Program-made: the position numbers and the translations under genes | Shown: piece by piece, positions 4,908 to 42,571 of the stretch | Layout: the number at the start of each line of letters is the position of its first letter | Position numbering within the stretch: position 1 is the first letter of the stretch | NCBI GenBank assembly: GCA_013426185.1 | Contig: CP058602.1 | Location: forward strand, 138,231 to 202,230 | DNA length: 64,000 bases | Source: Candidatus Woesebacteria bacterium | Lineage (GTDB): Bacteria; Patescibacteriota; Microgenomatia; UBA8517 | Reading direction: 5' to 3' | Notes under the pieces: model-generated | Seen by the model: the letters and a program-made list of their open reading frames with translations, nothing else | The model's database searches: none | Told to the model about the DNA's origin: nothing

Positions 4908-5134
4908 TCCTAGCTATACATCTGACAATTTTCGCAAAGCTTGTGTGGCAGTTTGAGCTTTTTGCAATTAGGGCAAACGACCAAGTTAGGCAAAAGAATC
5001 TTGTTTGATGAACTATTTAATCTTTTGCCGCTTCGGCTTCTTGTATGTTTTCTTTTAGGTAAAGGTGTCATACAGGGTATTTTATCCCTTTTAGTGCTTC
5101 TAATGCAACTGGCAAATGAGGCAGAGGTGTCAAG

Positions 5135-5508
5135 AATAGGTAAAAGGCAAGAGGTAAAAAAGGTAAAAGGTAAAAGAGTTCGGCTATCGAATATCAGACG
5201 TCAGATATCAGACATCGGACGTTGGCTGTCAGATGTCGGACATCAGCCATCAGCTGTCGGATGTCGGAATTTAGTTGGAGCTAGCCGAAGCCGGACGAAA
5301 GATTGTATTTAGTATTTTGTATTATGTATTATGCAGGAGAATGCATTGTCCCCATAATACATAATTCATAATACTAAATTCAGTGTTCATAATCTGTTTC
5401 TAATTTGTAAAATTGGAAAATTGTAATTTGTTTAGAATTTAGGATTTAGAAATTAGAATTTAGTTCTTGTGATTTGTATATTGCAATTTGGATTTTGTAG
5501 TTTGTAAT
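5135..5508. repeat. Mosaic intergenic repeat copy R1 (modules A-B-C-E), in the same orientation as R5 and R6
   Basis: Contains (GGTAAAAG)n, the iteron-like block ATCAGACATCGGAC...CAGCTGTCGGATGTCGGA, the core GATTGTATTTAGTATTTTGTATTATGTATTATGCAGGA and an AT-rich TTTAGAA/TTTGTAA heptamer array. Confidence 0.8.
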
Positions 5509-7518
5509 TTACACTATTCCTTCTTCTATTTCTTCAATTATCTTTTTATACTTTTTTCTATTTTTAAAGATATCCTCGGCAACTTCTCTTGCTTTTTTGA
5601 TTATCTCAAAATCAGACCAGCTGCCGGCTCTAAGCTCAGGAAAACCGTGTTGCCTTATTCCCCATACTTCTCCTGGGCCTCTTAATTTTAAGTCAATCTC
5701 TGCTAATTTAAATCCGGACGACTCTTTTCTCAATGCTTCTAAGCGTCTGTAGACCCTTTGGGAAGGGTTTTCACTAAAAAGTAAACAGTATCCTTTCTTT
5801 TCACCTCTTCCCACCCTACCCCTTAGTTGGTGAAGTTGGGCAAGACCAAATCTCTCAGCAGCTTCAATAATCATGATATTTGCGCTTGGAATATCAATTC
5901 CTACTTCAACAACAGGGGTTGATACCAAAATATTAATTTTGCCCTCTTTGTAACTTTTAATTATTTCGTCTTTTTCTTTGTTTTTTAATCTGCCGTGAAG
6001 AAGACCTACTTTAAAATTTTTAAATATTTTTTTAAGTTTCAAAAATTCTGATTCGGCAGCCTTTATTTGCTGCATTGATTCTTTTTCTGACTCTTCAATA
6101 AGAGGACAGATAATAAAAACCTGGTCTTTGTCTTTTTCTATTTTTTCTTTTATCCAGTTGTAAGCACCTGCTCTTTTTTCCTCGGGGACTATCCAGGTAA
6201 CAACGTCTCTTTTTCCTTTGGGCATCTCTTCAAGTAAAGAAAGATCTAAATTGCCGTAGGCGGTTAAGGCTATCGTTCTTGGAATAGGGGTAGCTGTCAT
6301 TGTTAAAATATGTGGCTGATATTTTTCTTTTTTTGTTTTTTCTACAAGTTTTGCTCTTTGTTTAACTCCAAATTTGTGCTGCTCATCAATTACGACAAGA
6401 GCGACATTTTCAAAATCTACACTTTTATGAATTAAAGAATGTGTTCCAATAATAACGTCTGCATTTTCTGGGTCAATTTTTTCAGAAGCGGTAGCAAGAC
6501 CTATTTTCATTCCTGTTTTTTCAAAAATTTCTTTGAAAGTTTTGTAATGTTGTTTGGCTAGAATTTCTGTTGGGGTCATCAAAACGGCTTTCTTTTGGTT
6601 TTTAAAAGCAACAAAAGAAGCAAAGGCGGCAACTACTGTTTTTCCACTACCAACATCTCCTTCAAGGAGTCTATTCATTGGATAATTTCTTTTGAGGTCG
6701 CTTGCTATTTCTTTGATGCTTCTTTCCTGGCTGGGGGTAAGATTGAAAGCAAGCAAGGATTTAAATAAGTTGTAAGTTTCCCCATCGCTTTTTAGAGGGT
6801 ATGAAAAGTTATTTTTTTGCCAGTTGATCTTTTTTGCAAGACTTGTGATTTGAAGTCTAAGGAACTCTTCAAAAGCCAGTCTTTCTCTTCCTAACCTTGC
6901 TTCTTCTTCGTTTTTTGGAAAGTGGACAAAGTGATAGGCTTTGCCAATTTTAGGATAACCAAGTTTTTTTAAAGTAGAGCTTGGAAATTTTTCTTCTATT
7001 TGGTCTTGATAAATTTCAAGAGCTAGTTTAATTTTGCTTCTGAACCATTTTGAACTCAAGCCTTTGGTTGAGCTATAAAGCGGAACTAATCTTCCTGTAT
7101 GAATTTTGCCTTTAATTTGGCTCTTTTCGTATTCGGGAGAAATAAGAGTTTTTTTACCTCTAAAAAGGCTGACTTTTCCGGCAAAGGAATACTTTTGGTT
7201 TTTCTTGATGTTTTGGACAAGAAAAGGTTGATTAAACCAGACGATGTTTATTCTACCCGTATTGTCCTCAATTAGTGCATTTTGCATAGTGAGACCTCTT
7301 CTTGTGTAAATATTTTTGATTTCTAAAACTTTGCCTGAAATGGTTACAATTTCATCTATATTGGCTTTTGCAATTTCAACTTGCTTGGTGAAGTCAAGAT
7401 AGCGGTAAGGAATGTAGGAAATAAGGTCAGATATTGTTTTGATGCCTATTTTTTCAAGTAATAAGGCATAATGATAACCTATTGAAGGCAGTTTGGTTAC
7501 AGAATCTTCTAAATCCAT
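5509..7518 (-). CDS. recG: ATP-dependent DNA helicase RecG
   Basis: Contains DEQHKFGV (DEAH box) and a GSGKT Walker A. N-terminal wedge region and C-terminal helicase domain; 669 aa. Confidence 0.85.
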   Translation of the reverse strand: MDLEDSVTKLPSIGYHYALLLEKIGIKTISDLISYIPYRYLDFTKQVEIAKANIDEIVTISGKVLEIKNIYTRRGLTMQNALIEDNTGRINIVWFNQPFLVQNIKKNQKYSFAGKVSLFRGKKTLISPEYEKSQIKGKIHTGRLVPLYSSTKGLSSKWFRSKIKLALEIYQDQIEEKFPSSTLKKLGYPKIGKAYHFVHFPKNEEEARLGRERLAFEEFLRLQITSLAKKINWQKNNFSYPLKSDGETYNLFKSLLAFNLTPSQERSIKEIASDLKRNYPMNRLLEGDVGSGKTVVAAFASFVAFKNQKKAVLMTPTEILAKQHYKTFKEIFEKTGMKIGLATASEKIDPENADVIIGTHSLIHKSVDFENVALVVIDEQHKFGVKQRAKLVEKTKKEKYQPHILTMTATPIPRTIALTAYGNLDLSLLEEMPKGKRDVVTWIVPEEKRAGAYNWIKEKIEKDKDQVFIICPLIEESEKESMQQIKAAESEFLKLKKIFKNFKVGLLHGRLKNKEKDEIIKSYKEGKINILVSTPVVEVGIDIPSANIMIIEAAERFGLAQLHQLRGRVGRGEKKGYCLLFSENPSQRVYRRLEALRKESSGFKLAEIDLKLRGPGEVWGIRQHGFPELRAGSWSDFEIIKKAREVAEDIFKNRKKYKKIIEEIEEGIV

Positions 7519-8814: not shown

Positions 8815-9255
8815 GAGACTAGAACAAAGAACAAAGGGGAAAATCACAAATTCCAAATCACAAGATCCAAATACTAAATTCTAATATCTAAATTCTAAGC
8901 CCTGAACCAGAATAAATTCGATTCAGGGCAAGCAAATTCCAAATCACAAATTCCAAATTACAAAAAAAAATTCCAACTTTTAACTTTTAACTATTTTTTA
9001 ATTTTGCTTCCTACTTACTACATTCTACTTTCTACTTTCCTTTCCTGCATAATACATAATACAAAATACTAGATACAATCTTCCGACCAGCTCCGACTAA
9101 ATTCCGATAGCCGACAGCTGATGGCTGATGTCCGACATCCGATAGCCGACATCCGATATCAGACAGCCGATATCTCTGGCGTCTGCTCCTTTCTACTTAC
9201 TACGTTCTACTTTCTACTTGAGTTTCTTTTAACTTTAAACTTACTCCCGTCTTGT
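8815..9255. repeat. Mosaic intergenic repeat copy R2 (reverse orientation relative to R1), with an embedded hairpin GCCCTGAACCAGAATAAATTCGATTCAGGGC at 8899-8939
   Basis: Reverse complements of the R1 modules are present, plus two direct copies of CTACTTACTAC(A/G)TTCTACTTTCTAC flanking the core. The copy sits between the divergent tyrS and PBP starts. Confidence 0.8.
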
Positions 9256-9271
9256 ATGGTAAAATATTTTA

Positions 9272-11875
9272 ATGGCAAATTGGAAGAGGGTTTTAAAGAG
9301 AAAAAAGCTTTCAAGATATATGTCAGTTGCTCCGAAGAGACTTGAGAAGAGTCAGAAGGTTCTTTTTTTTGCTAAGATTAGTTTTTTGTCTCTTTTGACT
9401 TTGTTTATTATTTTTATTGTTTCTATTCCTCTTTTTGCCTTTAATCTTCCCTCCCCTGATAAAGTTGTCCGCCGTGAGGGCTTTTCTACCAAAATTTTAG
9501 ATCGTAACGGTGAAGTTTTGTATGATATTTACGAAAATCAAAGGAGAACGCCAGTTTCTTTGAATGATATCCCTCTTTATTTGCGTCAGGCAACTGTTGC
9601 GGTTGAAGATAAGAATTTTTACAAGCATCAGGGCTTTGATGTAACAGGGTATCTGCGGGCTATTTTTAACATTGTTGTTCGTCACAAGTTGCAAGGTGGT
9701 TCTACTTTAACTCAACAGCTTGTCAAAAACACTCTCTTGACATCAGAAAGAACTCTTTTTCGCAAGATTAGGGAGTTTATTTTGGCAATTCAGATAGAGA
9801 GGAAATACACCAAGGATGAAATTTTGCAGATGTATTTAAATGAAGCCCCCTACGGCGGTACTGCTTGGGGAGTTGAGGCCGCATCCGAGCTTTACTTTGG
9901 CAAGAGCGTTAAAGATTTGAACCTAATAGAATCAGCTATTTTAGCCGGTCTTCCTCAACGTCCCTCAGTTTATTCGCCTTATTCTTCGACCCCCAAAGCT
10001 TATGTTGATAGAACGAAATCTGTTTTGCGCAGGATGAGAGAAGATGGTTATATCACAAAAGAGCAGGAAGACGAAGCTGTTAAGCAGCTTGAGAATGTTC
10101 AATTTAAGCCTAAAGAAACAGGTTTTAAGGCGCCGCATTTTGTCCAATATGTTCAAAAGGTTTTGGAAGAAAAATATAGCGAGGATGTAGTCACAAGAGG
10201 AGGGCTGAAGGTCACAACCACTCTTGATTTGAAGCTTCAGGAAAAAGCTCAGGATATTGTTAAAGAAGAAATTGCTAAGGTTGAAAAGTTAAATATCACC
10301 AATGGTGCTGCTGTTGTTTTAGATCCTGAAACAGGTGAAATTTTGGCAATGGTTGGTTCTAAGAATTTTTCAGACCCCAATTATGATGGCCAAGTAAATG
10401 TTACATTGTCTTTGCGTCAACCAGGTTCTGCCATAAAGCCAATAACTTATGCTGCTGCTTTCAAAAAGGGTTATACCCCTTCTACTCTTTTGATGGACGT
10501 TCCAACCGAGTTTGGAACAGGCCAAGGTGGAAAGCCTTATAAACCGGTCAATTATGATGGAAAATATCGAGGGCCGGTTCAGGTGAGATATGCTTTGGGG
10601 AATTCTCTCAATATTCCAGCAGTTAAGATGCTAGCTTTGGTAGGAATAGAAAACACTCTTCGGCTTGCTTATGACCTTGGCATTAATTCACTTGAGCCAA
10701 CGCGCGATACTTTAAGCAAAGTTGGACTTTCTTTAACTCTAGGTGGTGGCGAAGTCAGGCTTTTGGAGTTAACAAATGCTTACTGTGCTTTTGCCAATCA
10801 GGGATATCGAGTTGATCCTGTAGCTATTTTGAAAGTAGAAGATCTAAATGGTAAGGTTTTGGAGGAAGTTAAGCCCAAAAAGTCAAAGTCTGTCATCTCG
10901 CCTCAGGTGGCATATCTTATTGCCAACATTCTTTCTGATAATGATGCAAGGAAAGATGTTTTTGGTCCAAATTCTCTTTTGAATATTCCAGGAAGAACTG
11001 TAATGGTTAAAACTGGGACAACCAATGATAAAAGAGATAACTGGGCGATTGGTGGGAACACTCAAGTAATGGTTGGTGTTTGGGTTGGCAATAATGATAA
11101 TTCAGAAATGAAGCAAGTTGCATCAGGTGTTTCGGGTGCTTCTCCTATCTGGCGTCGAATTTTGCTTGAGGCGCTTTCTGGTAAACCCAATATTGGTTTT
11201 GAAAGACCAGATGGTATTGAAACTGTTGATGTTGATATTGTTTCAGGGTATCGCTCTCATGATGGTTTTCCTTCAAGGCCTGAGATTTTTATTAAGGGCA
11301 CGGAACCTGGTGATGATCCTGTTCATGTTAAGCTCAAGGTCTGCAAAAATGATGGGAAGATAGCAACACCAGCCGATATTGCAAGTGGTAATTATGAAGA
11401 GAAAGAATATTTTATCTTTAAGGAAGAGGACCCAACTTCAGGTGGTGGTCCTAATAAATGGCAAGAAGGAATTTTAAATTGGCTTTCAACTCAAAGTGAT
11501 CCTCGTTACCATCCACCAACGGAATATTGTGGAGCAACTAATCCCCTAAGTATCGATTTTGATACTCCTCGCGATAAAGATTCCAATATTTCTTCCAACT
11601 TTGAGGTGAGGTTAAAAGCTGATTCTACTTCTGATATTAAAGAAGTGTCTCTTTATATTGATGGTAGCCTTTTTCGCACTTTTACCAAGCCGCCTTATGC
11701 CGCGAATTTAAGTCTTGATAAGGGTGTTCATAGGCTTAAGGCAAGAGCAAAAGATCAAGATGGACATCAGTCAGAAAGAGAAATTACTATTGGAGTAGGG
11801 GTAGCTTGGGATTATGTCTCTCCCACTCCCCCACCAACCCTAATTGTTTCCCCATCACCCACACTTTCGCCTTGA
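9272..11875 (+). CDS. Class A penicillin-binding protein (glycosyltransferase GT51 plus transpeptidase) with a C-terminal Ig-like extension and a Pro-rich tail
   Basis: GT51 motif ATVAVEDKNFYKHQGFD; SxxK as GSAIKP; KTGTT motif. N-terminal TM anchor. Confidence 0.8.
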   Translation: MANWKRVLKRKKLSRYMSVAPKRLEKSQKVLFFAKISFLSLLTLFIIFIVSIPLFAFNLPSPDKVVRREGFSTKILDRNGEVLYDIYENQRRTPVSLNDIPLYLRQATVAVEDKNFYKHQGFDVTGYLRAIFNIVVRHKLQGGSTLTQQLVKNTLLTSERTLFRKIREFILAIQIERKYTKDEILQMYLNEAPYGGTAWGVEAASELYFGKSVKDLNLIESAILAGLPQRPSVYSPYSSTPKAYVDRTKSVLRRMREDGYITKEQEDEAVKQLENVQFKPKETGFKAPHFVQYVQKVLEEKYSEDVVTRGGLKVTTTLDLKLQEKAQDIVKEEIAKVEKLNITNGAAVVLDPETGEILAMVGSKNFSDPNYDGQVNVTLSLRQPGSAIKPITYAAAFKKGYTPSTLLMDVPTEFGTGQGGKPYKPVNYDGKYRGPVQVRYALGNSLNIPAVKMLALVGIENTLRLAYDLGINSLEPTRDTLSKVGLSLTLGGGEVRLLELTNAYCAFANQGYRVDPVAILKVEDLNGKVLEEVKPKKSKSVISPQVAYLIANILSDNDARKDVFGPNSLLNIPGRTVMVKTGTTNDKRDNWAIGGNTQVMVGVWVGNNDNSEMKQVASGVSGASPIWRRILLEALSGKPNIGFERPDGIETVDVDIVSGYRSHDGFPSRPEIFIKGTEPGDDPVHVKLKVCKNDGKIATPADIASGNYEEKEYFIFKEEDPTSGGGPNKWQEGILNWLSTQSDPRYHPPTEYCGATNPLSIDFDTPRDKDSNISSNFEVRLKADSTSDIKEVSLYIDGSLFRTFTKPPYAANLSLDKGVHRLKARAKDQDGHQSEREITIGVGVAWDYVSPTPPPTLIVSPSPTLSP

Positions 11876-16535: not shown

Positions 16536-17345
16536 TTCCGTACACCCCCGGGGTGTACTGAGGCGACACCTCGGTATTATTTTTATTCAATAGCTAGAGC
16601 CTTGATTTTTGCCAGTTTTCTTTGGTAATCAACTTGATTGAAAGTAAATTCCACCATTTTTTCTATTGATGGAAAGAATTTGAGAAGAAATTCTTTGTCG
16701 ATAATCTTTAGATCTCTTGTTCCTAGATAATCAGGAAAAGAGGTCCCTGGATAGGTTTTTAGGTCTTCTGGATTTTTAATCAAAAATGAGGTTAAGGGAT
16801 TAAGATGTATGTAACGAGCTACATGTACAAATTGTTCGTCATTTTCTATTCTCACCGCCTTAAAACCGGATTGGAATAGAGCTCCTGGTCTTTTGTTCCT
16901 TGTATTGTAGAATTTAGCAATACTGTTTTGGAAGTTGCCGATAAAAGATGAGATTCCTTTTTCTTTTATTTCTTTAGCTAAAAAATGGAAATGGTTAGGC
17001 ATTAAAGAAAAGGTAAAAATACTGATTCTTTTAGTATTATTTTCGATTGTATTATCCCAGAATAAGTTTTTATCCTCCGAGCTAAGCCTTGCGTAATGGG
17101 AGTATCTTATATCTAGGTTATCAAAAGCGTAGAATTTTATAGTTTCGATGGCTCTGTCGAGTAGTCTTTTTGATACAAAGATTTTTTCAGAGCCGACTGT
17201 TTTGTTGAATATATGATAAATTTCACCTTTGACGATTGGTTCTTTTCTAAGGGCCATTATATAAAATTTACATTAACAATTACCGAGGTGTCAAGCTAGT
17301 ACACCCCCGGGGTGTGATTGGGGTGTGATTGGGGTGTGATTGCAA
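16536..17345 (-). mobile_element. REP/RAYT-like unit: one HuH transposase gene bracketed by about 37-bp imperfect terminal inverted repeats
   Basis: Left end is GTACACCCCCGGGGTGTACTGAGGCGACACCTCGGTA (16536-16572). Right end is its near reverse complement, TACCGAGGTGTCAAGCTAGTACACCCCCGGGGTGTGA (17281-17317). The unit lies in the thrS-infC intergenic space. Confidence 0.6.
16583..17257 (-). CDS. HuH Y1 transposase, IS200-like / REP-associated tyrosine transposase (RAYT)-like
   Basis: HuH motif in MPNHFHFLAKE and a catalytic Tyr motif ARYIHLNPL (the YIxxNP motif of RAYTs). The gene is flanked by inverted palindromic repeats. Confidence 0.65.
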   Translation of the reverse strand: MALRKEPIVKGEIYHIFNKTVGSEKIFVSKRLLDRAIETIKFYAFDNLDIRYSHYARLSSEDKNLFWDNTIENNTKRISIFTFSLMPNHFHFLAKEIKEKGISSFIGNFQNSIAKFYNTRNKRPGALFQSGFKAVRIENDEQFVHVARYIHLNPLTSFLIKNPEDLKTYPGTSFPDYLGTRDLKIIDKEFLLKFFPSIEKMVEFTFNQVDYQRKLAKIKALAIE

Positions 17346-17349
17346 TTCT

Positions 17350-19089
17350 TTAGAGGTTTTTAGAAATTTTTTCTTGTAAATCTTTAATAAAAGAGTCGAG
17401 GGTAAGTGCACCATAGTCCTTTCCATCTCTACCTCGGACGCTGATTTTTTTCTCTTTTTCTTCCCTATCACCAACTATGGCCATAAAATAGACTTTTTCT
17501 ATCTGAGCATCTCTTATTTTTGCTCCAAGTGTCTCGTTTCTCAAGTCAAGTTCTACTCTTATATTTTCCTCCCTTAATTTTGCAGTAATTTCTTCTGCAT
17601 ATTTTAGATTTCTCTCAGTTATGGGCAGAACTTTTACTTGAATTGGTGTGAGCCATAATGGAAAATTTCCAGCGTAGTTTTCGATTAAAATTGCCATAAA
17701 CCTTTCCATTGAACCAAGAGGGGCTCTATGGATTAAGACAGGCCTTTCAATTTTGCCTTCTTCGTTTACATACTCAAGTTGAAAACGCTCAGGAAGCATA
17801 AAGTCAACCTGAATTGTTCCACATTGCCACTCTCTTCCAAGAGAATCTTTAACAACGACATCAAGCTTTGGGCCATAAAAAGCCGCATCTCCCTCACTTT
17901 TGATAAATTCTAGCCCCTTTTTCTTGACTGCTTTGACGATTTCCTCTTCGGCTTTTTGCCAAATCTTGTCGTTTCCTAGATATTTTTCTTTTTTAGATCT
18001 AAGACCTAACCTTAAGTAATAATTTTTGAGCCCAAAGGTCTCGAGAAGATATGACATGTAGTCAAAAACACCTATAAACTCGTCAATAACTTGACTTTCA
18101 CGGCAGAATATGTGAGCGTCGTCTTGTGTAATATGTCTTACTCTTAGCATTCCTGAAAGCTCGCCCGGCTTTTCGTAGCGGTAGACGGTCGCAATTTCAG
18201 CTATTCTTAAAGGCAGCTCACGATAGCTTCTTTTTTCTGATTTATAAATCATCATATGGAAAGGACAATTCATTGGCTTGACCAAGTATTCGTCTTTATC
18301 AATTTTCATAGGTGAATACATCTTGTCGCGGTATAAATCCCAGTGACCTGATGTTTTCCATAGCTGTTTTTTGCCTATATGAGGAGTATAGACATGTTGA
18401 TAACCTCTTTTTGTCTGTTCTTTTATAATAAAGTTCTCAATTTCTCGTCTTATAATTGCTCCTTTTGGTTTAAGTAAAAGAAGTCCTTGTCCTATTTCTT
18501 CGCTTAGCAAAAATAAATCAAGGTCTTTGCCTATTTTTCTATGGTCTCTTTTTTTCGCTTCCTCAAGGTTTTTGAGAAAAATGTCAAGTTCCTCTTGAGT
18601 TTCAAAAGCAGTTCCGTAAATGCGGGTTAGCATTTTATTTTTTTCATCCCCGTGCCAATAAGCACCCGCAATTGAAAGCAACTTAAAGGCACCAACTTTT
18701 CCAGTTGAGGTGACATGAGGCCCTGCGCAAAGATCTACAAATTCATCCCCTGTTCTATATATTGTTGGTTTTTCTCCTCTTTTTTCTATCTCATCTAACC
18801 ATTCAAGTTTGAAAGGATTATCGGAGAAAATTTTTCTTCCTTCCTCAATAGTAATTTCTTCTCTTGTAAGAGGGAGATTGGCTTTGATAATTTTTTTCAT
18901 CTCAGCTTCAATTTTGGGAAAATCTTTTTCGCTAATCTCTTCCCCATTTGGGTCAAAATCAAAATAGAAACCGTCATCGGTTGCAGGCCCCATTGCCATT
19001 TTTACCTTTGGGAAGAACCTGAGAACAGCTTGGGTTAGAATGTGCTCTGTTGTGTGTCTTATAGCCTTTAGCTTTTCGTTTTTGTCCAT
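17350..19089 (-). CDS. thrS: Threonyl-tRNA synthetase (lacks an N-terminal TGS extension)
   Basis: AIRHTTEHILTQAV editing-domain signature and class II core motifs; 579 aa. Confidence 0.85.
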   Translation of the reverse strand: MDKNEKLKAIRHTTEHILTQAVLRFFPKVKMAMGPATDDGFYFDFDPNGEEISEKDFPKIEAEMKKIIKANLPLTREEITIEEGRKIFSDNPFKLEWLDEIEKRGEKPTIYRTGDEFVDLCAGPHVTSTGKVGAFKLLSIAGAYWHGDEKNKMLTRIYGTAFETQEELDIFLKNLEEAKKRDHRKIGKDLDLFLLSEEIGQGLLLLKPKGAIIRREIENFIIKEQTKRGYQHVYTPHIGKKQLWKTSGHWDLYRDKMYSPMKIDKDEYLVKPMNCPFHMMIYKSEKRSYRELPLRIAEIATVYRYEKPGELSGMLRVRHITQDDAHIFCRESQVIDEFIGVFDYMSYLLETFGLKNYYLRLGLRSKKEKYLGNDKIWQKAEEEIVKAVKKKGLEFIKSEGDAAFYGPKLDVVVKDSLGREWQCGTIQVDFMLPERFQLEYVNEEGKIERPVLIHRAPLGSMERFMAILIENYAGNFPLWLTPIQVKVLPITERNLKYAEEITAKLREENIRVELDLRNETLGAKIRDAQIEKVYFMAIVGDREEKEKKISVRGRDGKDYGALTLDSFIKDLQEKISKNL

Positions 19090-19146
19090 AAGATAAGCTT
19101 ATATTAAAACTTTTGCGAGGAAAAATCTATAAGGAGCGAGTTTTAG

Positions 19147-19220
19147 TGGACCCGAGGGGGATCGAACCCCTGACCTCTTGACTGCCAGCCAAGCGCTCTA
19201 GCCAGCTGAGCTACGGGCCC
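19147..19220 (-). tRNA. tRNA-Ala (GGC)
   Basis: Cloverleaf GGGCCCG/CGGGTCC with the G3:U70 Ala identity pair. Anticodon loop CTGGCAG; T-loop TTCGATC. Confidence 0.85.
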
Positions 19221-19278
19221 TTAGAATTTTATTTTAGCATACTGCATTATTTTAACAAAGTGTTTCTTCTTTAGGCTA

Positions 19279-19335
19279 AATCCCGATCTGGCAAGCTAAA
19301 CCACTTCCGAAGTGGGCTGAGTTGCCATATCGGGA
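19279..19335. repeat. Direct repeat E1: a remnant of the copZ 3' end (…NPDLAS*) plus downstream imperfect palindrome. E2 is its partner.
   Basis: ATCCCGATCTGGCAAGCTAAACCACTTCCGAAGTGGGCTGAGTTGCCATATCGGGAT. Inner palindrome CCACTTCCGAAGTGG; outer arms ATCCCGAT/ATCGGGAT. Confidence 0.7.
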
Positions 19336-19347
19336 TATTTAAGTCCA

Positions 19348-19569
19348 CTACCTTTTCAAGTTAAAAATTATAGAAAGAATAATTGTTAAGATGATGCTTA
19401 TGATTATTGAAGTTGTAATGGGTGCGTAGAAGATAAAATTTTCTTTTTTAATGAATATGTCACCAGGTAATTTCCCAAAATATGGTATTTTGCTAGAAAA
19501 TAGAATAAAAATACCGAAGGCGACTACTATTAGACCTAAAAGGATAATTAATTTACCCAAATCTTGCAT
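19348..19569 (-). CDS. DUF2905 family small membrane protein
   Basis: GKLPGDI motif flanked by two TM helices. It is co-oriented immediately downstream of copA. Confidence 0.5.
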   Translation of the reverse strand: MQDLGKLIILLGLIVVAFGIFILFSSKIPYFGKLPGDIFIKKENFIFYAPITTSIIISIILTIILSIIFNLKR

Positions 19570-19593
19570 ACCTAGATATTATAAATTTTAGCT

Positions 19594-21861
19594 TCAATGG
19601 GAATCAAATTGTATTCGCTCTCTTTTTAATCGCAGTGAATTGCCTACGACAGAAATTGAACTTGCAGCCATCGCAAAGGCGGCCAAAGCAGGGTTAAGAA
19701 GAAGGTGAAAAGAAGGATAAAGGATTCCCATTGCAACAGGAATTAGAGAAACATTATAACCAAATGCCCAAAAGAGATTTTGTTTTATAACAGAAAGAGT
19801 TTTTCGACTTAGATTGTAGGCCGTCAAGATAGATTTAATATCTTTGTTGAGTAAGGTGATTCCTGCTGATTCAATTGCAACATCAGTTCCTGATCCAATC
19901 GCAATTCCGATATCTGCTGTTGCTAAAGAAGGAGCATCATTTACTCCATCTCCGACAAAGGCCACCACTTGTGTTTTTTCTTTTTTCAGCTCTTTTACTT
20001 TGTTTGCTTTTTCTTCCGGCAAAACATCAGCTAGTACATTCTCTATGCCCGATAACTTTGCTATTGCCTTTGCGGTTCTTTCGTTGTCGCCTGTTATCAT
20101 CCAAATCTCAATACCCTCTCTCTTCAAGTTTTGCACAGTTTCTTTTACCCCACCTTTAAGAGTGTCGGAAATTGTAATTATACCCAGAAGATTTTTGCTT
20201 TGGGATAGAAACACCACGGTTTTTCCTTCGTATTCCAACTTTTTGATACTTTCTTCCCATTTATCGAGATTGACCCTATTTATTCCCATTAAAGCTCTAT
20301 TACCCAAAAAATATATCTTTCCTTCTATTTTTCCTTCAATTCCCTTCCCGGCGTGAGAGGTAAAGTTTTTTACTGCGGCAAGTTTTAGTCTATTACTTTT
20401 TGCCTTTTTGAGTATTGCATCAGCAAGCGAATGTTCGGATCCTTTTTCAAGAGAGGCTGCGATTTTAAGTACTTCCTCCTTGCTTATTTTTTGATTCTTG
20501 TTTTCAATGATATCAACTACTTTGGGTCTGCCTTGAGTTAGGGTGCCGGTTTTATCAAAAATAAAAATCTTTGCTTTGCTTAAAATCTCAAGGCTCTGAG
20601 CGTCTTTAATTAAAATGCCTGATTCTGCTCCCTTGCCGACACCTACCATAATAGCGGTTGGTGTGGCAAGACCCATCGCGCAAGGGCAAGCGATGATAAG
20701 AACGGCTATCATGTTACTCAAGGCTAAGTTGAAATTGCCAAAGTCGTACCACACAACAAAGGTTAAAACCGCAAGGACAAGGACAATGGGCACAAAATAT
20801 GAAGACACGATATCTGCAATTCTTTGGATGGGCGCTCTTGTTGCCTGAGCCTCTGAAACAAGTTTTATGATGTTTGAAAGCATTGTTTCTTTACCAACTT
20901 TCTCTGCTTTAAAGATAAAGGTCCCTGTTTTATTGATGGTTCCGCCAATTACTTTGTCTTTTACTTTTTTGTCAACAGGTATTGACTCTCCTGTTATCAT
21001 TGATTCATCAACACTGCTTGCTCCTTCAACAATCTCACCGTCTACAGGGATTTTTTCACCTGGCCTGACGCGGATAAAATCGCCAACTTTTACGTTGTCA
21101 ATTGAAATGTCAAACTCCTTGAAATTACCTCTTTTGATATCTGATATGGTTAGCTTGTCCCCCGTTCTTACAGTTTGCAACACTCTTGCAGTTTTTGCCT
21201 TGAGTCCTAGTAATTTTTTAATAGCATCGGAAGTATGAGCTTTAGCTTTTGCCTCAAGAAGTCGGCCCAACAGGATAAGAGCAATGATAACAGTTGCTGT
21301 GTCAAAGTATAAATGTCCCCCTTTAAAAGTTGAAATTAAAGAATAACCCCAGGCACTAGATGTGCCAATTGCAATTAAGGTATCCATGCTTGCAGTTCTA
21401 TTTTTGAGTCCTGACAATGTAGCCTGATAAAAACTCTTTCCTGCCCAGAACTGTACAGGGGTAGAAAGTAGTAAAAGAGTAAAAGGATTACTCAAAAATT
21501 GAGGAACAAAATTGAACCATTCTGGAAAACTCCCAAGTACTACAAAAATTGATACAACTATGGAGAAAATAGTCTTTATTTTGAGATTTTCAAGCTCCCT
21601 TTTCTTTTCTTCTTCTTTAATCTTGTTGATATCTTTTTCTTCGTCTGTTTTGATTATGGCTTTGTACCCTGCTTCTTCTACAGCGTTTGCTAAATCTTGA
21701 TCTTTAACATTCAGACTGCATTCAACCACTGCCTCCTCGCTTCCGTAGTTCACAGAAGCGGTTTTGACACCTTCTATTTTTTGCAATTTTCTTTCAATCA
21801 GCTTGGCGCAGGAGGCACAGTGCATTCCAATAATTGGGAAAGAAGTCCTTTTTATTTGCAT
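19594..21861 (-). CDS. copA: Copper-translocating P1B-type ATPase
   Basis: N-terminal HMA domain ([14 protein letters not shown]), a CPC metal-binding TM motif ([11 protein letters not shown]), DKTGTLT phosphorylation site and GDGVNDAP. Confidence 0.85.
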
Positions 21862-21960
21862 CTTATTTTCAAATTTTTTCTTTCTCGCTAAAGAAAAACC
21901 ATATTACAAAGATAATAGCAATAGTGCCCAAGAGCGTAACCAATATTTTGTCTGAAGTAA

Positions 21961-22272
21961 TCATCTGGTTGATTTTCTAAAGACTGCTTTTATCTCTTTT
22001 ATTAATTTGTTTTCATCTATCTTTCCCTTTTTGGCAGGATCAATCACACAGCTTTTAATATGATTTTCAAGTATTATCTCGTCTACTTTTTTAAGTGCAG
22101 ATTGTATGGCTTGAGATTGATTAATAACGTCAATGCAATAAGCATCTTCTTCAACCATTTTTATAACTTTTTCAATGTGACCGCGAGTTATTTTTAGACG
22201 GTGAATTATTTTGCTTTTGGTTGGTTCTTTGCTGTAAAGGCGTGTGTTCATACTAAAATTACCTGTTGACAT
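21961..22272 (-). CDS. csoR: CsoR/RcnR-family metal-sensing transcriptional repressor (DUF156)
   Basis: RGHIEKVIKMVEEDAYCIDVINQSQAIQSALKKV...HIKSCV matches the CsoR helix-bundle signature, with conserved Cys/His. It is upstream of copA in the same orientation. Confidence 0.65.
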   Translation of the reverse strand: MSTGNFSMNTRLYSKEPTKSKIIHRLKITRGHIEKVIKMVEEDAYCIDVINQSQAIQSALKKVDEIILENHIKSCVIDPAKKGKIDENKLIKEIKAVFRKSTR

Positions 22273-22295
22273 CCCCTGTATGGGGATGTATAAAT
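22266..22295 (+). promoter_or_regulatory. Divergent promoter with a CsoR-type operator: TTGACA, 17-nt spacer, TATAAA, with the palindrome ACATCCCC-TGTAT-GGGGATGT inside the spacer
   Basis: Read directly. The C4-N5-G4 inverted repeat is the CsoR operator architecture. A minus-strand TTGACA-17-TTTAAT promoter for csoR-copA lies a few bp away. Confidence 0.5.
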
Positions 22296-22351
22296 TAAAC
22301 TACTTAGATTGTTTATTGTCAAGTGCTTTTATCTTTTAATATACTCTAATT

Positions 22352-23347
22352 ATGAACACAGTCTTTCTCGCCTTCTTTACTGGTTTAACTACAGGTGGCG
22401 TTTCTTGTTTTGCTGTCCAGGGTGGCCTTTTAGCAAGTTCAATTGCCAACCAAAAAGAAGGCGAAAGAAGTAAAGCAGTTTTTCTTTTCCTTTTCTCACG
22501 ACTTTTTGCTTACTTTGTTTTAGGAGCTCTTCTTGGATTTTTGGGTTCATCAATTGCCATTTCTCCTAAAGTTCAGGGATTAATGCAAATTTTTGCCGGC
22601 GTTATAATGCTTTTGACCGCTTTTCGTCTTTTTGATTTACATCCTGTTTTCAGGCGTTTTGTTATTACCCCTCCGAAGAGTGTTTTTAAGGTTCTGAGGA
22701 TAAAAAGCCGTGAAGAAGGACTTTTTTCAGCTTTGTTTTTGGGGTTATTAACTGTTTTAATACCTTGCGGTGTCACTCAGGCAATGATGCTTCTTTCGGT
22801 TGCTTCTGGTTCCTGGGTCTATGGTGGTTTGATTCTTTTCTCTTTTATTTTGGGGACCACTCCCTTATTTTTGTTTTTGGGTGGTGTCTCAGGAAAACTT
22901 TTTGAAGTCAAAAGTTTCAGATTCGTTGCTGCTTTTGTTATTTTAATTTTGGGAGTTTTGTCAATTAATACAGGGCAGATGCTTCGCGGTTCGATCCATA
23001 CGCTTCAAAATTATTGGCTAGCTGCAACGGGTCGCCTTGAGCAAAATGGTAGAGGTAAGATTGCGGAGTTTAATAAGAACGGTATTCAAGAAGTTGAAGT
23101 AAAGGTAACAACCTCGGGTTATTATCCCAGCGCTACTTCCCTTAAAGTGGGTGTGCCGGTTCGTCTTAAATTAAACTCTCAAAATGCACAGGGTTGTATC
23201 AGAGCTTTTACCATTCCTGAATATGGTATCTCTCAAGTTTTGCCTGCTAGTGGCGAGACAGTTATTGAATTTACTCCTACTAAAAAGGGTAAGCTCGCTT
23301 TTACCTGCAGTATGGGTATGTATGGTGGTTATTTTGATGTTTTCTAA
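22352..23347 (+). CDS. Polytopic membrane protein (DsbD/CcdA- or TauE-like, with Cys in two TM helices) fused to a C-terminal cupredoxin-like domain; putative copper-handling protein
   Basis: About 8 TM helices with GGVSCFAVQGG and LIPCGVTQAMM. The C-terminal soluble region (VPVRLKLNSQNAQGCIRAFTIPEYGI...FTCSMGMYGGYFDV) resembles a Cys/Met-rich copper-binding beta-sandwich. It is divergent from csoR and upstream of copZ. Confidence 0.4.
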   Translation: MNTVFLAFFTGLTTGGVSCFAVQGGLLASSIANQKEGERSKAVFLFLFSRLFAYFVLGALLGFLGSSIAISPKVQGLMQIFAGVIMLLTAFRLFDLHPVFRRFVITPPKSVFKVLRIKSREEGLFSALFLGLLTVLIPCGVTQAMMLLSVASGSWVYGGLILFSFILGTTPLFLFLGGVSGKLFEVKSFRFVAAFVILILGVLSINTGQMLRGSIHTLQNYWLAATGRLEQNGRGKIAEFNKNGIQEVEVKVTTSGYYPSATSLKVGVPVRLKLNSQNAQGCIRAFTIPEYGISQVLPASGETVIEFTPTKKGKLAFTCSMGMYGGYFDVF

Positions 23348-23350
23348 TTT

Positions 23351-23575
23351 ATGGCAAAAAAGATTTACAAAGTAGAAGGAATGAATTGCGATGCCTGCGC
23401 CAAGATGATTGAGCTTGATTTGGAGGATGAAGGTGTTGTGGCAATGTGCGATTATGCTAAATCTTCTTTAGAAATTGAGATTGAAGACAAGAAAACTGAG
23501 GATAAGGTAAAAGAAGTTCTTAGAAAGGGTGGATACTTGTTGGTAGAGGAGACCAATCCCGATGTGGCAAGCTAA
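23351..23575 (+). CDS. copZ: Heavy-metal-associated (HMA) domain copper chaperone
   Basis: MNCDACAKMIE MxCxxC motif; 74 aa. Confidence 0.75.
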   Translation: MAKKIYKVEGMNCDACAKMIELDLEDEGVVAMCDYAKSSLEIEIEDKKTEDKVKEVLRKGGYLLVEETNPDVAS

Positions 23576-23611
23576 GCTACTTCCGAAGTTGACTGTGTAG
23601 CCAATTGGGAT
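23556..23611. repeat. Direct repeat E2: the genuine copZ 3' end plus the same downstream element, about 80% identical to E1
   Basis: ATCCCGATGTGGCAAGCTAAGCTACTTCCGAAGTTGACTGTGTAGCCAATTGGGAT, in the same orientation as E1. Confidence 0.7.
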
Positions 23612-23638
23612 TTTGATTTTGGAAATTTGAAGAGATTG

Positions 23639-23681
23639 TGGACGGTAAGGGACTCGAACCCCTGACCTTTCGCACGTCATC
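23639..23681 (-). other. Orphan tRNA 3' fragment (T-arm plus acceptor 3' strand ...GGTCAGGGGTTCGAGTCCCTTACCGTCCA)
   Basis: It has a T-stem/T-loop and the acceptor 3' strand ACCGTCC, but no D or anticodon arm. The acceptor is complementary to the 5' fragment at 24029-24051. Confidence 0.5.
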
Positions 23682-23698
23682 CCGATTTTAATTTGGTG

Positions 23699-23772
23699 TG
23701 GATCCAGTAGGACTCGAACCTACGACCTCTTACACGTCAAGTAAGCGCTCTAGCCAGCTGAGCTATGGATCC
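23699..23772 (-). tRNA. tRNA-Val (GAC)
   Basis: Cloverleaf GGATCCA/TGGATCC. Anticodon loop TTGACGT; T-loop TTCGAGT. Confidence 0.85.
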
Positions 23773-24012
23773 ATCATTTATTAACTTTTTGAGGTGTTTA
23801 GGATTTTTATATTTTTTCAGACGCTTTTCAAGCACTATTGCCTCTTTTTTAGTTTCTACACCTATGTTACATATCATTTTCCAAGGAACACCTCTTCTTG
23901 TCCATCTTTGTTTGCCTTTGTTATGGTTCAACAGTCTTTTAACCAAATCCTTAGTATAACCTATATATAATTTGTTTAATTTGATGCTTTCTAAAATATA
24001 GACAAAATACAT
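23737..24012 (-). CDS. GIY-YIG nuclease family small protein. The real C-terminus is probably shorter; the ORF track reads through into tRNA-Val.
   Basis: N-terminus MYFVYILESIKLNKLYIGYTKDLVKRLLNHN contains the GIY..YIG motifs and a catalytic R/N pattern. Confidence 0.55.
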   Translation of the reverse strand: MYFVYILESIKLNKLYIGYTKDLVKRLLNHNKGKQRWTRRGVPWKMICNIGVETKKEAIVLEKRLKKYKNPKHLKKLINDGSIAQLARALT

Positions 24013-24028
24013 TTTATATTAATCGGGA

Positions 24029-24051
24029 CTAACCAACTGAGCTAACCGTCC
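24029..24051 (-). other. Orphan tRNA 5' fragment (acceptor 5' strand plus D-arm start GGACGGTTAGCTCAGTTGGTTAG)
   Basis: Canonical 5' tRNA sequence that stops inside the D-loop. Its acceptor GGACGGT pairs with the ACCGTCC of the 3' fragment at 23639-23681. Confidence 0.5.
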
Positions 24052-24114
24052 CCATTTGATAGCAAAGTGCTTTTGTTTAGGTATTTTAGATTAAATTTGT
24101 ATCAACTTCAATAT

Positions 24115-24714
24115 TTAACCTGCAGATCTTGTTAGGTAATGATCGGCTGAAAGGAGAAAGCTTGAGCCGTGTTTTTTGTATCTGTTCCAGTATTTCATTC
24201 TTGTTCTTTTGCTTGTTGCCTCAAGCCAGATTGAAGCTTTTTCTATTTCAAGTCTTGCAGTTCTTATAATTTTTAGAACCTGTTCAAAGAAAAACAGATG
24301 ATATGTGCCGGGATTTTGTGGCGCTTGTTCCGGTATAGCCTTTATTTCTTCTCTTATATTTTGGGTGGATTTTGATAGAAGTTTTACTTCTTTTATGATT
24401 GCATCAAGCTCGGCTCTTAGCTGTCCTATCTTTTTTTCCACTTCTTTCTTTTCTTCTGTGAACACAGAAAGTTCGTGCCATCGGCTTGTTACTTCTACTC
24501 TTTTGGTTTCTGTTTTTATTCCTGATTTGGATATTTCTATTGATTCCCCGGGTCTAAATTCTTGTTTTTGTGGGTATTCACTTTTGACACCAACAATTTC
24601 TTGAAGGATGCTTAAAGGATCAATATTACTTGCCAAAGAAGACATTAACCCCACCTGTTCATTTAGGTTTTCTATTTGCTTTGCTCTCTGGCTTTTTTTT
24701 GTGGAATTTGCCAT
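24115..24714 (-). CDS. Hypothetical coiled-coil protein
   Basis: 199-aa ORF downstream of trigger factor with a central heptad-rich segment. No recognisable motif. Confidence 0.3.
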   Translation of the reverse strand: MANSTKKSQRAKQIENLNEQVGLMSSLASNIDPLSILQEIVGVKSEYPQKQEFRPGESIEISKSGIKTETKRVEVTSRWHELSVFTEEKKEVEKKIGQLRAELDAIIKEVKLLSKSTQNIREEIKAIPEQAPQNPGTYHLFFFEQVLKIIRTARLEIEKASIWLEATSKRTRMKYWNRYKKHGSSFLLSADHYLTRSAG

Positions 24715-25669: not shown

Positions 25670-25920
25670 GGGAATAAGCTTTACTTGAAATTTAGAACGC
25701 AAAATTGAAAGTTAAAAGTTAAAACTTTCTAATTAGATTATAGATTATAGAATTTTGATTTATACTTACTACATTCTACATTCTACTTTCTACTTTTATT
25801 TCCTGAATAATATAAAATACTAAATACTAACTTTTGACCAGCTTTGACTAACTCCGCTGCAGTCGGAGACTAACTTCGACTAATATCTGATAGCTGATGT
25901 CTGATATCCGATATCCGAGG
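25670..25920. repeat. Mosaic intergenic repeat copy R3 (R2 orientation; modules E-D-C'-B)
   Basis: Contains TACTTACTACATTCTACATTCTACTTTCTAC, a degenerate core, and ATCTGATAGCTGATGTCTGATATCCGATATCCGA. It lies upstream of tig. Confidence 0.7.
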
Positions 25921-26079
25921 CCCTATCCCTTATGCTGAGTTTTAAAGGTTGAAGGGTTAAATTTGATGCCAAATGAAGATTTGGGACTAAAAGTTTTAGC
26001 CTTGAAAAAATCTGGAGTCCTATATTTTGGCCCTGCTTGATTTGGTCCTTCCTTTTTCTTGATAAAGCTTTTTGTCATA

Positions 26080-32489: not shown

Positions 32490-32633
32490 CAACCCCGCCA
32501 AACTTCAGCTATTGGATGTCAGCTATCAGCCGTCAGCTGTCGGAGTTGTTTGCTATCTTAATTCATAAATCTTAAATCCTAAATCAAAATTCTATAATCT
32601 AATTTTTGACTTTTGAGTCTTGTGTTAATCTTG
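32490..32633. repeat. Mosaic intergenic repeat copy R4 (partial: modules B and E), abutting tRNA-Lys
   Basis: Contains CAGCTATTGGATGTCAGCTATCAGCCGTCAGCTGTCGGAG followed by AAATCTTAAATCCTAAATCAAAATTCTATAATCTAATTTTTGACTTTTGAG. Confidence 0.65.
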
Positions 32634-41861: not shown

Positions 41862-42125
41862 TTATTTTAATTGATTTTGGTATTTTAATATCAATCTTCG
41901 AAACTTATAACCAAACCCTGATTTCAAAAACTTTTCTCTTTTCTCAGCGCACAGCTTACAACAGAACCTTTCGTCATATATCAACTTCCAAGGTATATAA
42001 GCTTTTGTATATCGAGATAGCCCTTTGTTGTGTTCTTTTATCCTTACCTCGAGATCCTTAATCGTCAACCCGACATATGTTTTGCCCTTTTTTCTCAAGC
42101 TCTCGAGTATGTAAACACTATACAT
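41862..42125 (-). CDS. GIY-YIG nuclease family small protein (second copy)
   Basis: N-terminus MYSVYILESLRKKGKTYVGLTIKDLEVRIKEHN contains the GIY..YVG motifs. Confidence 0.55.
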   Translation of the reverse strand: MYSVYILESLRKKGKTYVGLTIKDLEVRIKEHNKGLSRYTKAYIPWKLIYDERFCCKLCAEKREKFLKSGFGYKFRRLILKYQNQLK

Positions 42126-42172: not shown

Positions 42173-42256
42173 TGCCGAGAGAGGGACTCGAACCCTCACG
42201 GTCCTTCGGACCACAGGATTTTAAGTCCTGCGTGTATACCATTCCACCATCTCGGC
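42173..42256 (-). tRNA. tRNA-Leu (TAA), type II
   Basis: Acceptor GCCGAGA/TCTCGGC; anticodon loop CTTAAAA; variable arm TGGTCCGAAGGACCGTG; T-loop TTCGAGT. Confidence 0.85.
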
Positions 42257-42349
42257 CTGAAATCTAACTTATTTTAAAACAGCTTTATTCCTGCTTCGCA
42301 GGAAAGGATTTGTCGCTTCGCTCTTGCTCACTTTCACTTACGTTCGCAC

Positions 42350-42449
42350 AAGTCCTGCGTGTATACCATTCCACCATCTCGGCCTGAAATCTAACTTATT
42401 TTAAAACAGCTTTATTCCTGCTTCGCAGGAAAGGATTTGTCGCTTCGCT
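42350..42449 (-). repeat. Tandem direct duplication (about 100 bp, near-identical) of the tRNA-Leu(TAA) 5' 34 nt plus 66 bp of upstream sequence. The original is at 42223-42322.
   Basis: Two copies of CAAGTCCTGCGTGTATACCATTCCACCATCTCGGCCTGAAATCTAACTTATTTTAAAACAGCTTTATTCCTGCTTCGCAGGAAAGGATTTGTCGCTTCGCT separated by 27 bp. Confidence 0.8.
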
Positions 42450-42571
42450 TATATTTACTTTAATTACTTTTACCTAATTTGGCACTCAACTTTTTCAACA
42501 CAACTTTTTCCAAACAACTAGCACAACTATTTTATCAAAATATGATTACAACTGCCAACTTTTGGAGAAAT

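Follow-up and report, generated by a model that had tools for sequence, protein, structure and literature searches.

What does a pair of direct repeats around a resistance gene cluster record? The question is raised by a 64-kb stretch of contig CP058602.1 of a Candidatus Woesebacteria bacterium (hereafter the window, to which all positions refer), in which a 4.3-kb block of copper-homeostasis genes at 19279-23611 is bracketed by two copies, E1 and E2, of a 57-nucleotide (nt) repeat and is flanked by tRNA genes and tRNA fragments. The original prediction took the repeats and the tRNA debris for the footprint of an acquired island. Comparison of the window with other loci and contigs, which are given L-numbers here (L001 and L002 represent the same organism as the window, matched by identical-protein look-up), led to a different answer. 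E1 and E2 are likely to be two independently acquired copies of a palindrome that resembles repetitive extragenic palindromes (REPs) and their hairpin-forming doublets (REPINs) and that was spread by a REP-associated tyrosine transposase (RAYT), and not scars of the insertion of the block.

The repeat pair and its family

The features that carry this argument are the following:

19279..19336, no strand: E1, an intact 57-58-nt REP/REPIN-like palindrome (fold and family identity; absent from the orthologous spacer of L087)
23351..23575, + strand: copZ, a CopZ-like HMA metallochaperone whose C-terminal 6 residues and stop codon come from E2 (Pfam HMA, weak, 25.8 bits)
23555..23611, no strand: E2, an older decayed copy of E (orthologous copy at the same junction in L086)

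The two repeats have the same orientation and are 86% identical over 49 nt without gaps and about 85% identical over the full 57-58 nt with one indel, where about 80% had been given originally. A degenerate 31-base pattern that covers both was found at exactly these two sites in the window and matched in 0 of 100 shuffles. Concern that the similarity might be insignificant was thus not borne out. E1 has the sequence ATCCCGAT-C-TGGCAA-GCTAAA-CCACTTCCGAAGTGG-GCTGAG-TTGCCA-T-ATCGGGAT and lies 11 nt past the stop codon of the DUF2905 gene, upstream of the tRNA-Ala promoter. Its nested hairpin is perfect, with Watson-Crick pairing throughout (20/20; -30.8 kcal/mol, z = -5.6). In E2 both stems have pairs missing; 17 Watson-Crick pairs and one G-U pair remain, and the fold is moderate on the + strand (-20 kcal/mol) and poor on the - strand. 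The statement that both copies carry the palindrome was therefore accurate for E1 and applied only loosely to E2. Rfam searches of 18900-24300 with a permissive E-value and of the whole window at the gathering threshold yielded only tRNAs; no RNA family covered E, and E had no similarity to tRNA.

E was found to be a dispersed element. An exact-pattern scan of the Joint Genome Institute (JGI) metagenomes returned 23 stretches with 25 matches, of which 21 were true copies of E; the matches in L104 and L106 were excluded as GC-rich chance matches without a hairpin. The consensus is TCCCGAT-N-TGGCAA-GCTAGA-CCACTTCCGAAGTGG-ATTGAG-TTGCCA-N-ATCGGGA. The copies were observed in at least six unrelated flanking contexts, with three on one 35-kb contig and four within 5.4 kb of L105. 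Half copies, which retain one arm and the inner hairpin, occurred on metagenome contigs as well. All copies examined (15/15) were extragenic or overlapped only the last ~20 nt of an open reading frame (ORF), and E faced the 5′ ends of genes as often as the 3′ ends. Across 14 distinct copies 95% of the cells paired, compared with 25-45% for slid partners, and two compensatory pairs were present. In 80 loci around the threonyl-tRNA synthetase (ThrRS) gene of related species, neither blastn-short nor nhmmer detected a sequence resembling E. CCGATGG heptamers, similar to arrays in the window, precede some of the metagenome copies.

A functional explanation would be that E1 and E2 are related intrinsic terminators or mRNA-stabilising 3′ hairpins that function has kept similar. 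Each E is found where the terminal gene of its operon ends, E2 is followed on the + strand by a T-rich tract (TTTTGATTTTGG), and it is only in the copZ sense that the substitutions in E2, as well as the one in L085, result in G-U pairs. A terminator scan called the inner hairpin of E1 terminator-like on the - strand, with the weak tail TTTAGCTTGC, and did not call E2 on the + strand. However, the same sequence, including loops and spacers, is present in unrelated genomes beside unrelated genes without a preference for 3′ ends, and half copies of E flank transposase genes. Furthermore, the E2 of L086 lacks the T-tract, and L087 does without both hairpins. Shared function as the source of the similarity is therefore very unlikely. 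Both copies may have taken on a secondary role as 3′ hairpins or terminators at the operon ends, which would be compatible with their origin as REP-like insertions.

Order of insertion at the copper locus

The block contains a gene for a fusion of a DsbD_2-type membrane domain and a cupredoxin domain (hereafter the fusion), directly upstream of copZ. Pairwise identities among the window, L086 and L087 were 72.2/69.1/66.7% for the fusion and 77.4/69.4/67.7% for CopZ, and therefore L087 is the outgroup to the window and L086. The gene order of L087 is tRNA-Ala-DUF2905-copA-csoR-fusion-copZ, as in the window, and no E was found in its orthologous tRNA-Ala/DUF2905 spacer or past its copZ gene. Thus, a relative with the same synteny and without the left repeat exists, which is the kind of relative that, according to the original prediction, would refute it.

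The copZ end yielded a second argument. L086 has E2 at exactly the same copZ junction as the window. The last six codons of copZ (NPDVAS) and its TAA stop codon are the left arm sequence of E2, and in the E-bearing lineages CopZ ends with ...(N/D)PD(V/M)AS*, encoded by the left arm and the spacer of the element. In relatives without E, CopZ has 68-70 amino acids (aa) and the tails ...SGYKLSPKI, ...SIVAEN or ...ITPQDKR, none with PDxAS. As L086 shares the junction and the tails of the E-less relatives differ, the block was already present when E2 entered the end of the copZ gene. The earlier description of E2 as the genuine 3′ end of copZ has thus to be reversed. The in-frame ...NPDLAS-stop that had been read in E1 is indeed there and is simply the reading of the element in that frame. 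A 202-aa ORF in L105 ends with ...KVAS* inside the right-hand E copy of that contig.

The two copies also differ in age. E1 was 91% identical to copies in other genomes and 85% identical to E2, and the E2 of L086 was 91% identical to the consensus type and 76% to its positional orthologue in the window. This identity matrix indicates that E1 and E2 are separate family members of different age and not the product of one event. That E1 had been copied from E2, with which it shares a few spacer bases, was considered and dropped, because the matrix places E1 nearer to the foreign copies.

In the order of events that these comparisons indicate, the copper module was already in the tRNA-Val/tRNA-Ala spacer, arranged as two divergent operons. 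An ancestor shared by L086 and the window organism then gained E2 in the end of copZ, where E2 replaced the native CopZ C-terminus and stop codon; E2 decayed afterwards in the window lineage. E1 was inserted later between DUF2905 and the tRNA-Ala promoter, and its hairpin is still perfect.

In the footprint interpretation, the 4.3-kb cassette would have entered via site-specific or E-mediated recombination of an E on a circular intermediate with an E resident in the tRNA-Val/tRNA-Ala spacer, and E1 and E2 would be the resulting attL/attR-like direct repeats. The block is in fact an insertion at a tRNA-tRNA junction, and the repeats are direct. Moreover, the same family brackets an insert elsewhere. 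L109 (2090-2330) has a single E at the conserved nusG-rplK junction, and at the same junction L105 (600-3340) has two directly oriented copies of E around 2.6 kb with ORFs for a 293-aa protein, a 78-aa protein, a RAYT and the 202-aa protein; the RAYT inside this E-cargo-E arrangement itself carries half-E flanks. At the copper locus, in contrast, the outgroup L087 has the block at the same tRNA-Ala border with E on neither side, E1 is nearer to foreign copies than to E2, and the decay of the two is very unequal. A hybrid-E "empty" allele was absent among the 23 metagenome matches. In addition, no integrase or recombinase was found in 19279-23611, where the ORFs are only DUF2905, copA, a 31-aa ORF, csoR, the fusion and copZ. 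We regard entry via a circular intermediate as distinctly improbable. It is also improbable that E copies are portable recombination or transposition ends, between direct copies of which a RAYT-type enzyme gains, loses or moves cargo, so that E1-copper-E2 would be potentially mobilisable; E-mediated gain or loss of the copper block is disfavoured by the E-less block of L087 and by the difference in age between the two repeats.

The likeness to tRNA-targeting integrative islands consists of cargo between tRNA genes, direct repeats and partial tRNA copies nearby. In such islands, however, the att sites are derived from the tRNA 3′ end and a tyrosine integrase is encoded, whereas the copper block has no integrase and its repeats are not tRNA-derived. 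The repeats should accompany only the island, whereas E is present at many loci and the block of L087 has no E, and the tRNA pieces of the window are the halves of one gene that was split by a separate 349-nt element. An integron origin was also rejected. By inspection no attC core sites (RYYYAAC...GTTRRRY) were found at the E ends, there is no IntI, and the copper "cassette" has five genes on both strands.

The copper block as an old insertion at a tRNA junction

To place the block, the genes and tRNAs of the window were mapped onto the 80 loci around ThrRS homologues, which were taken from species-level genomes. The best ThrRS matches were from Patescibacteria and Woesebacteria metagenome-assembled genomes with 60-68% identity; these matches and the presence of a DUF5660 gene fit an origin of the window from a Woesebacteria-like member of the Patescibacteria. 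The backbone of the relatives (ThrRS identity 52-68%) is trigger factor-DUF5660-tRNA-Val(GAC)-[tRNA-Ala(GGC)]-...-ThrRS-IF3-L35-L20-PheS-PheT, with IF3 denoting initiation factor 3. One member of it borders the block:

19146..19220, - strand: tRNA-Ala(GGC), an ancestral backbone gene (tRNA prediction)

No copper genes were found within 10 kb in loci L003-L039, several of which have the conserved trigger factor-DUF5660-tRNA-Val-(tRNA-Ala)-ThrRS synteny. In L027 tRNA-Val(GAC) and tRNA-Ala(GGC) are separated by 13 nt, whereas the interval holds other cargo in L020 (small ORFs) and in L004 (a 321-aa ORF and BipA). Therefore, the tRNA-Val/tRNA-Ala junction is a variable spot, which in the window is occupied by the copper block. 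The cargo of L020, a complete Woesebacteria genome, consists of two small ORFs at 6684-7413, which from their sequence look like remnants of a homing-endonuclease-type gene.

The block is present at the same locus in L086, L087, L083, L084, L092 and L095. The fusion is 72% identical to that of the window in L086 and 69% in L087, and because the block is common to lineages down to 69% protein identity, its insertion is old. A foreign signature was not found. The GC content of the block is 0.37-0.39 compared with 0.34-0.37 in the flanks, and the codon-usage residuals were z = -0.14 for copA and +1.9 for the fusion. Hence, of the acquired island that had been proposed, the insertion itself stands at a deep level, as L003-L039 have no copper genes, and the repeats and the tRNA debris as its footprint do not.

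A RAYT-type transposase associated with E

The association of E with a transposase was observed directly on metagenome contigs. L091 and L105 each contain a 222-aa PF01797 gene with inverted E half-elements on both sides within 5-50 nt, the arm nearest to the gene and the hairpin outermost. Between the two proteins the identity is 81%, and each shares 43-44% identity with a protein encoded in the window:

16540..17315, - strand: RAYT-like Y1/HUH transposase (gene 16583-17257, 224 aa) with inverted flanks (PF01797; absent from L083 and L084)

A Y1/HUH gene between inverted palindromes is the layout described for REP-associated tyrosine transposases (Bertels & Rainey 2011, PMC3116915; Bertels 2017, PMC5581495), and the arrangement in L091 and L105 is this defining layout. 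The window gene, 2 kb from E1 and the sole copy in the window, has the inverted flanks TACCGAGGTGTC-spacer-GTACACCCCCGGGGTGTAC at 16540-16576 and 17281-17315. They share the arm and the CAAGCTA spacer design of E and have a different hairpin. Local alignment of the flank with E gave a score of 12 compared with 5.8 +/- 1.1 for shuffled sequences, and 3 of 2000 shuffles reached it. The only NCBIfam match of the protein was REP_Tyr_transpos (NF047646; 52.5 bits, E = 4.7e-14), and in profile comparison its HUH region aligned to ISDra2 TnpA. The HUH motif H89-x-H91 (LMPNHFHFL) and Y149 (RYIHLNP) are invariant in 24 homologues. Judged from its sequence, the window protein is a divergent relative of the curated RAYTs and not an equivalog. 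A phmmer search with it against PDB yielded nothing.

More than 800 homologues of this family exist in Microgenomates. Most of them are on short contigs, and where the source gives a name it is just "transposase" or "putative transposase" (Daviesbacteria). The window, L002 and L108 carry the gene; it is absent from the near-identical strains L083 and L084, which have a single degenerate hairpin (GTACACCTTGGGGATGTGATT; L083 4880-5030) in the IF3-ThrRS spacer. Three tandem GGGGTGTGATT units lie at ~17309-17341 of the window.

By analogy to the TnpA proteins of IS200/IS605 and to E. coli TnpA-REP, the RAYT would bind the inner hairpin CCACTTCCGAAGTGG of E on single-stranded DNA, would cut and rejoin within or next to the arms (TCCCGAT-N-TGGCAA), and would thereby copy or move E into new extragenic sites. 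The repeat, its dispersal as a family, its association with RAYT genes, the order of events and the empty and filled sites are shown by the sequences, whereas catalysis by a RAYT and the choice of the RAYT that would act on E in the window genome are inferred.

Nunvar reportedly described REP elements with RAYT (TnpA-REP) transposases in 2010. E shares with the REP/REPIN-RAYT systems of E. coli and Pseudomonas fluorescens the short, imperfect extragenic palindromes (with many copies at the level of the E family), the Y1/HUH gene between inverted copies, the intergenic location and the better conservation of intact compared with decaying copies. In contrast to those systems, which have two separate REPs and a long spacer, E is one 57-nt hairpin (arm-spacer-hairpin-spacer-arm). 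The host also differs, being Patescibacteria/Woesebacteria-like, the 224-aa RAYT has a C-terminal extension, and the copy density in the window is low. In the literature RAYTs are regarded as fixed at one extragenic location (10.1101/2021.07.10.451892), whereas the window RAYT is present or absent between near-identical strains. No description of a REP/RAYT-type system in Patescibacteria was found in the literature searched.

The proximity of the Y1 transposase raises a further alternative, namely a composite RAYT/IS200-IS605-like transposable unit that would have E1 and E2 as its functional left and right ends and could carry the copper block as cargo. IS200/IS605 elements have subterminal hairpins at the left and right ends (LE and RE), which are recognised as single-stranded DNA and are in direct orientation. 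E1 and E2 are also directly oriented, the HUH/Y1 enzyme family is shared with IS608 and ISDra2, the transposase gene is only 2 kb away, and L105 shows E-cargo-E. However, the stretch that E1 and E2 enclose lacks a transposase, E is found in solitary copies, and the RAYT flanks are inverted and not direct. Moreover, E2 has lost pairing in both stems, the hairpins of the resident RAYT differ from E, the block has not moved in L086, L087, L083, L084, L092 and L095, and the copper module of other Woesebacteria has no E. A composite unit is extremely unlikely.

Several observations weigh against the interpretation of E1 and E2 as independently acquired, RAYT-spread copies. The L087 contig stops 60 nt past copZ, so that the right neighbour is beyond view, and the missing E in L087 could in principle result from precise excision. 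Only two copies of E are present in the 64-kb window, and over-representation is not apparent there. The covariation of the hairpin alone is not significant, as 68 of 500 shuffles reached it; a weak covariation signal is expected for near-identical repeats. No RAYT with E-type flanks was found in the window or in the flanks of L083 and L084. The 52.5 bits of the window RAYT are below the equivalog cut-off of 80 of NF047646, and its profile matches to TnpA structures are marginal (ISDra2 TnpA, E = 0.015; E. coli TnpA-REP 4ER8, E = 0.17). Lastly, cargo gain mediated by E does exist in the family, as seen from L105 and L109. Together with the evidence described above, these points leave independent acquisition of E1 and E2 the likely explanation.

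The tRNA fragments and a GIY-YIG/tRNA-Val cassette

The tRNA-Ala gene, the tRNA-Val gene and the tRNA fragments that had been noted around the block are all real. The features at the right border are the following:

23639..23679, - strand: 3′ piece (anticodon to acceptor end) of the original tRNA-Val(GAC) (intact gene in L083)
23680..24028, - strand: 349-nt cassette with a GIY-YIG ORF and a complete tRNA-Val(GAC) (absent from L083; present in L084, L092 and L095)
23698..23772, - strand: tRNA-Val(GAC) of the cassette (tRNA prediction)
24029..24051, - strand: 5′ piece (acceptor to D-loop) of the original tRNA-Val(GAC) (acceptor half complementary to that of the 3′ piece)

The pieces at 24051-24029 and 23679-23639 have complementary acceptor halves and together form one tRNA-Val(GAC), which is intact in the near-identical strain L083 (11287-11361). 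The insert at 23680-24028 replaces 10 nt of this resident gene and leaves both halves in place; the insertion site was observed as filled in the window, L084, L092 and L095 and as empty in L083. The fragments, which had been counted as part of an island footprint, are thus the two halves of a resident gene that was split by an unrelated cassette. A reading of the split gene as intron-containing was rejected, because the two pieces lack 10 nt from the D-stem and anticodon stem, so that splicing cannot restore the tRNA.

The cassette contains a GIY-YIG ORF at 24012-23737 of ~80 aa (PF01541, E = 8.5e-17), which runs into the tRNA gene, and its tRNA-Val(GAC) (23772-23698) is complete but different from the resident one. 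The 8-nt inverted ends of the cassette, TCCCGATT and AATCGGGA (23680-23687 and 24021-24028), equal the terminal motif of E, and no similarity to the E termini was found past these 8 nt. The motif ATCCCGAT occurs 6 times in the window, where 0.88 occurrences are expected. Under the improbable interpretation of E copies as portable ends, the cassette, with its terminal TCCCGAT(T) motif, might rely on the end chemistry of E or on its target.

All GIY-YIG homologues examined (L115, L116, L117, L118, L014 and L027) are within ~150 nt of a tRNA gene for Lys, Asp, Ser, Val or Ala, and in L116 the ORF lies between two tRNA-Ser genes and overlaps both. A second GIY-YIG ORF of the window (41862-42125, 87 aa) is directly downstream of tRNA-Leu(TAA). 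Upstream of this tRNA-Leu is a truncated 5′ copy of it, cut in the anticodon loop and duplicated with its upstream region as a 112-nt repeat (42223-42334 and 42350-42461). In L014 (Shapirobacteria, 9130-9660) a GIY-YIG ORF and a tRNA-Val(GAC) lie between two direct ~40-nt hairpins, CCTGCCCGC...GCAGGCGGG, which are unlike E, and the second hairpin copy interrupts the D-loop of a degenerate tRNA-like sequence.

Free-standing GIY-YIG homing endonucleases beside tRNA genes are known from phage T4 (SegB; PMC13096335, PMC10448857). By this analogy the cassette looks like a homing-type nuclease element that brings its own replacement tRNA. It shares with the SegB type the small ORF beside tRNA genes and the strain-level presence or absence at one site. 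In contrast to the phage enzymes, it resides in the cellular genome of a bacterium of the Candidate Phyla Radiation (CPR), its ORF comprises only the ~80-aa catalytic domain, and it carries a whole replacement tRNA-Val and keeps both resident halves.

Gene content and regulation of the copper block

On the + strand, the left part of the region at 19.1-24.1 kb reads ThrRS (-), tRNA-Ala(GGC) (-), E1, DUF2905 (-), copA (-), the 31-aa ORF (-) and csoR (-). The right part reads divergent promoter region, fusion (+), copZ (+) ending over E2, tRNA 3′ piece, tRNA-Val(GAC) (-), GIY-YIG (-), tRNA 5′ piece, DUF5660 (-) and trigger factor (-). The genes and sites of the block that have not been listed above are:

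19348..19569, - strand: DUF2905 small membrane protein, last gene of the csoR-copA operon (PF11146, E = 3e-21)
19594..21861, - strand: CopA-type P1B copper ATPase (Pfam HMA, E1-E2_ATPase and Hydrolase (HAD))
21869..21964, - strand: hydrophobic 31-aa ORF, candidate small membrane peptide (translation)
21961..22272, - strand: CsoR-family copper-sensing repressor (PF02583, Trns_repr_metal, E = 1e-23)
22269..22289, no strand: candidate CsoR operator ACATCCCCTGTATGGGGATGT (read from the sequence)
22352..23347, + strand: 331-aa fusion of a DsbD_2 membrane domain and a CupA-like cupredoxin (PF13386 and PF13473, Cupredoxin_1)

Pfam confirmed all gene calls that had been made for the block (DUF2905, copA, csoR, the DsbD_2/cupredoxin fusion and copZ). 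The start codon of the 31-aa ORF, which the ORF prediction did not list with the thresholds applied, overlaps the csoR stop codon (ATGA), and this overlap suggests translational coupling of the two genes. The palindrome ACATCCCCTGTATGGGGATGT lies between the TTGACA (-35) and TATAAA (-10) hexamers of the fusion-copZ promoter and, by its likeness to known GC-run palindromic CsoR operators, is a candidate operator. CsoR presumably regulates both divergent operons, csoR-(31-aa ORF)-copA-DUF2905 and fusion-copZ. The hairpin GTACACCCCCGGGGTGTAC of the RAYT flank (16540-16558) has ACAyCCCC/GGGGrTGT half-sites that resemble ACATCCCCTGTATGGGGATGT, which is probably a coincidence.

The cupredoxin domain of the fusion contains a C...CSMGM motif and matches pneumococcal CupA (2MRY/4F2E) with E = 4e-13. 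CupA is a Cu(I) chaperone of known structure (PDB 2MRY, 4F2E, 4F2F; PMC5646241). Because this domain matches a Cu(I) chaperone alongside the other gene calls, the block is a coherent copper-efflux and chaperone module. The likeness to CupA and to the N-terminal cupredoxin of CopA from Streptococcus pneumoniae consists of the Cys...Cys-x-Met-x-Met pattern and the location beside genes for a copper ATPase and a copper repressor. CupA, however, has a single anchor helix, whereas the fusion has a six-helix DsbD_2-type membrane domain, and the pneumococcal system has the regulator CopY, whereas the block has CsoR and a separate HMA CopZ. The fusion has more than 4000 homologues, and the DsbD_2 + cupredoxin architecture is common to the 120 best that were listed.

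Other Woesebacteria (L111-L114) have a larger copper module, csoR-DUF1573-ORF-rhodanese-DUF5676-cupredoxin-copA(-DUF2905) opposite fusion-copZ. The neighbourhoods of these modules differ from that in the window, and the divergent core csoR...copA / fusion-copZ is kept. From its gene content, the block of the window appears to be a reduced form of this module.

Elsewhere in the window, tandem arrays of heptamers (GGTAAAA, ATCAGAC/GTCGGAC, TAGAATT, CTACTTT and others) make up intergenic zones at ~5120-5490, 8840-9240, 25700-25930, 32500-32630 and 59885-60250. They recur as long direct or inverted matches, e.g. 8993-9082 and 59966-60055 with 91% identity.

Implications

The resemblance of the direct repeats and tRNA debris at this resistance cluster to a scar of integration was misleading, which calls for caution in annotation. 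Three unrelated kinds of event have met at this locus, namely the old insertion of the block, the arrival of two REP-like copies at different times and the recent gain of a homing-type cassette. The cassette, with its GIY-YIG ORF and its replacement tRNA, would be a compact homing-type element of a minimal genome, by which an essential tRNA gene is destroyed and a substitute is supplied. The E element, for its part, rewrote the C-terminus and the stop codon of a copper chaperone.

Taken together, E1 and E2 belong to a REP/RAYT-type system, a kind of system that is already known, in a CPR bacterium. The range of REP/RAYT systems would thus include a family of 224-aa RAYTs with more than 800 Microgenomates homologues that are annotated only as "transposase". 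The gain or loss of the RAYT gene at the strain level and the E-cargo-E allele do not fit the view of RAYTs as immobile and only vertically inherited.

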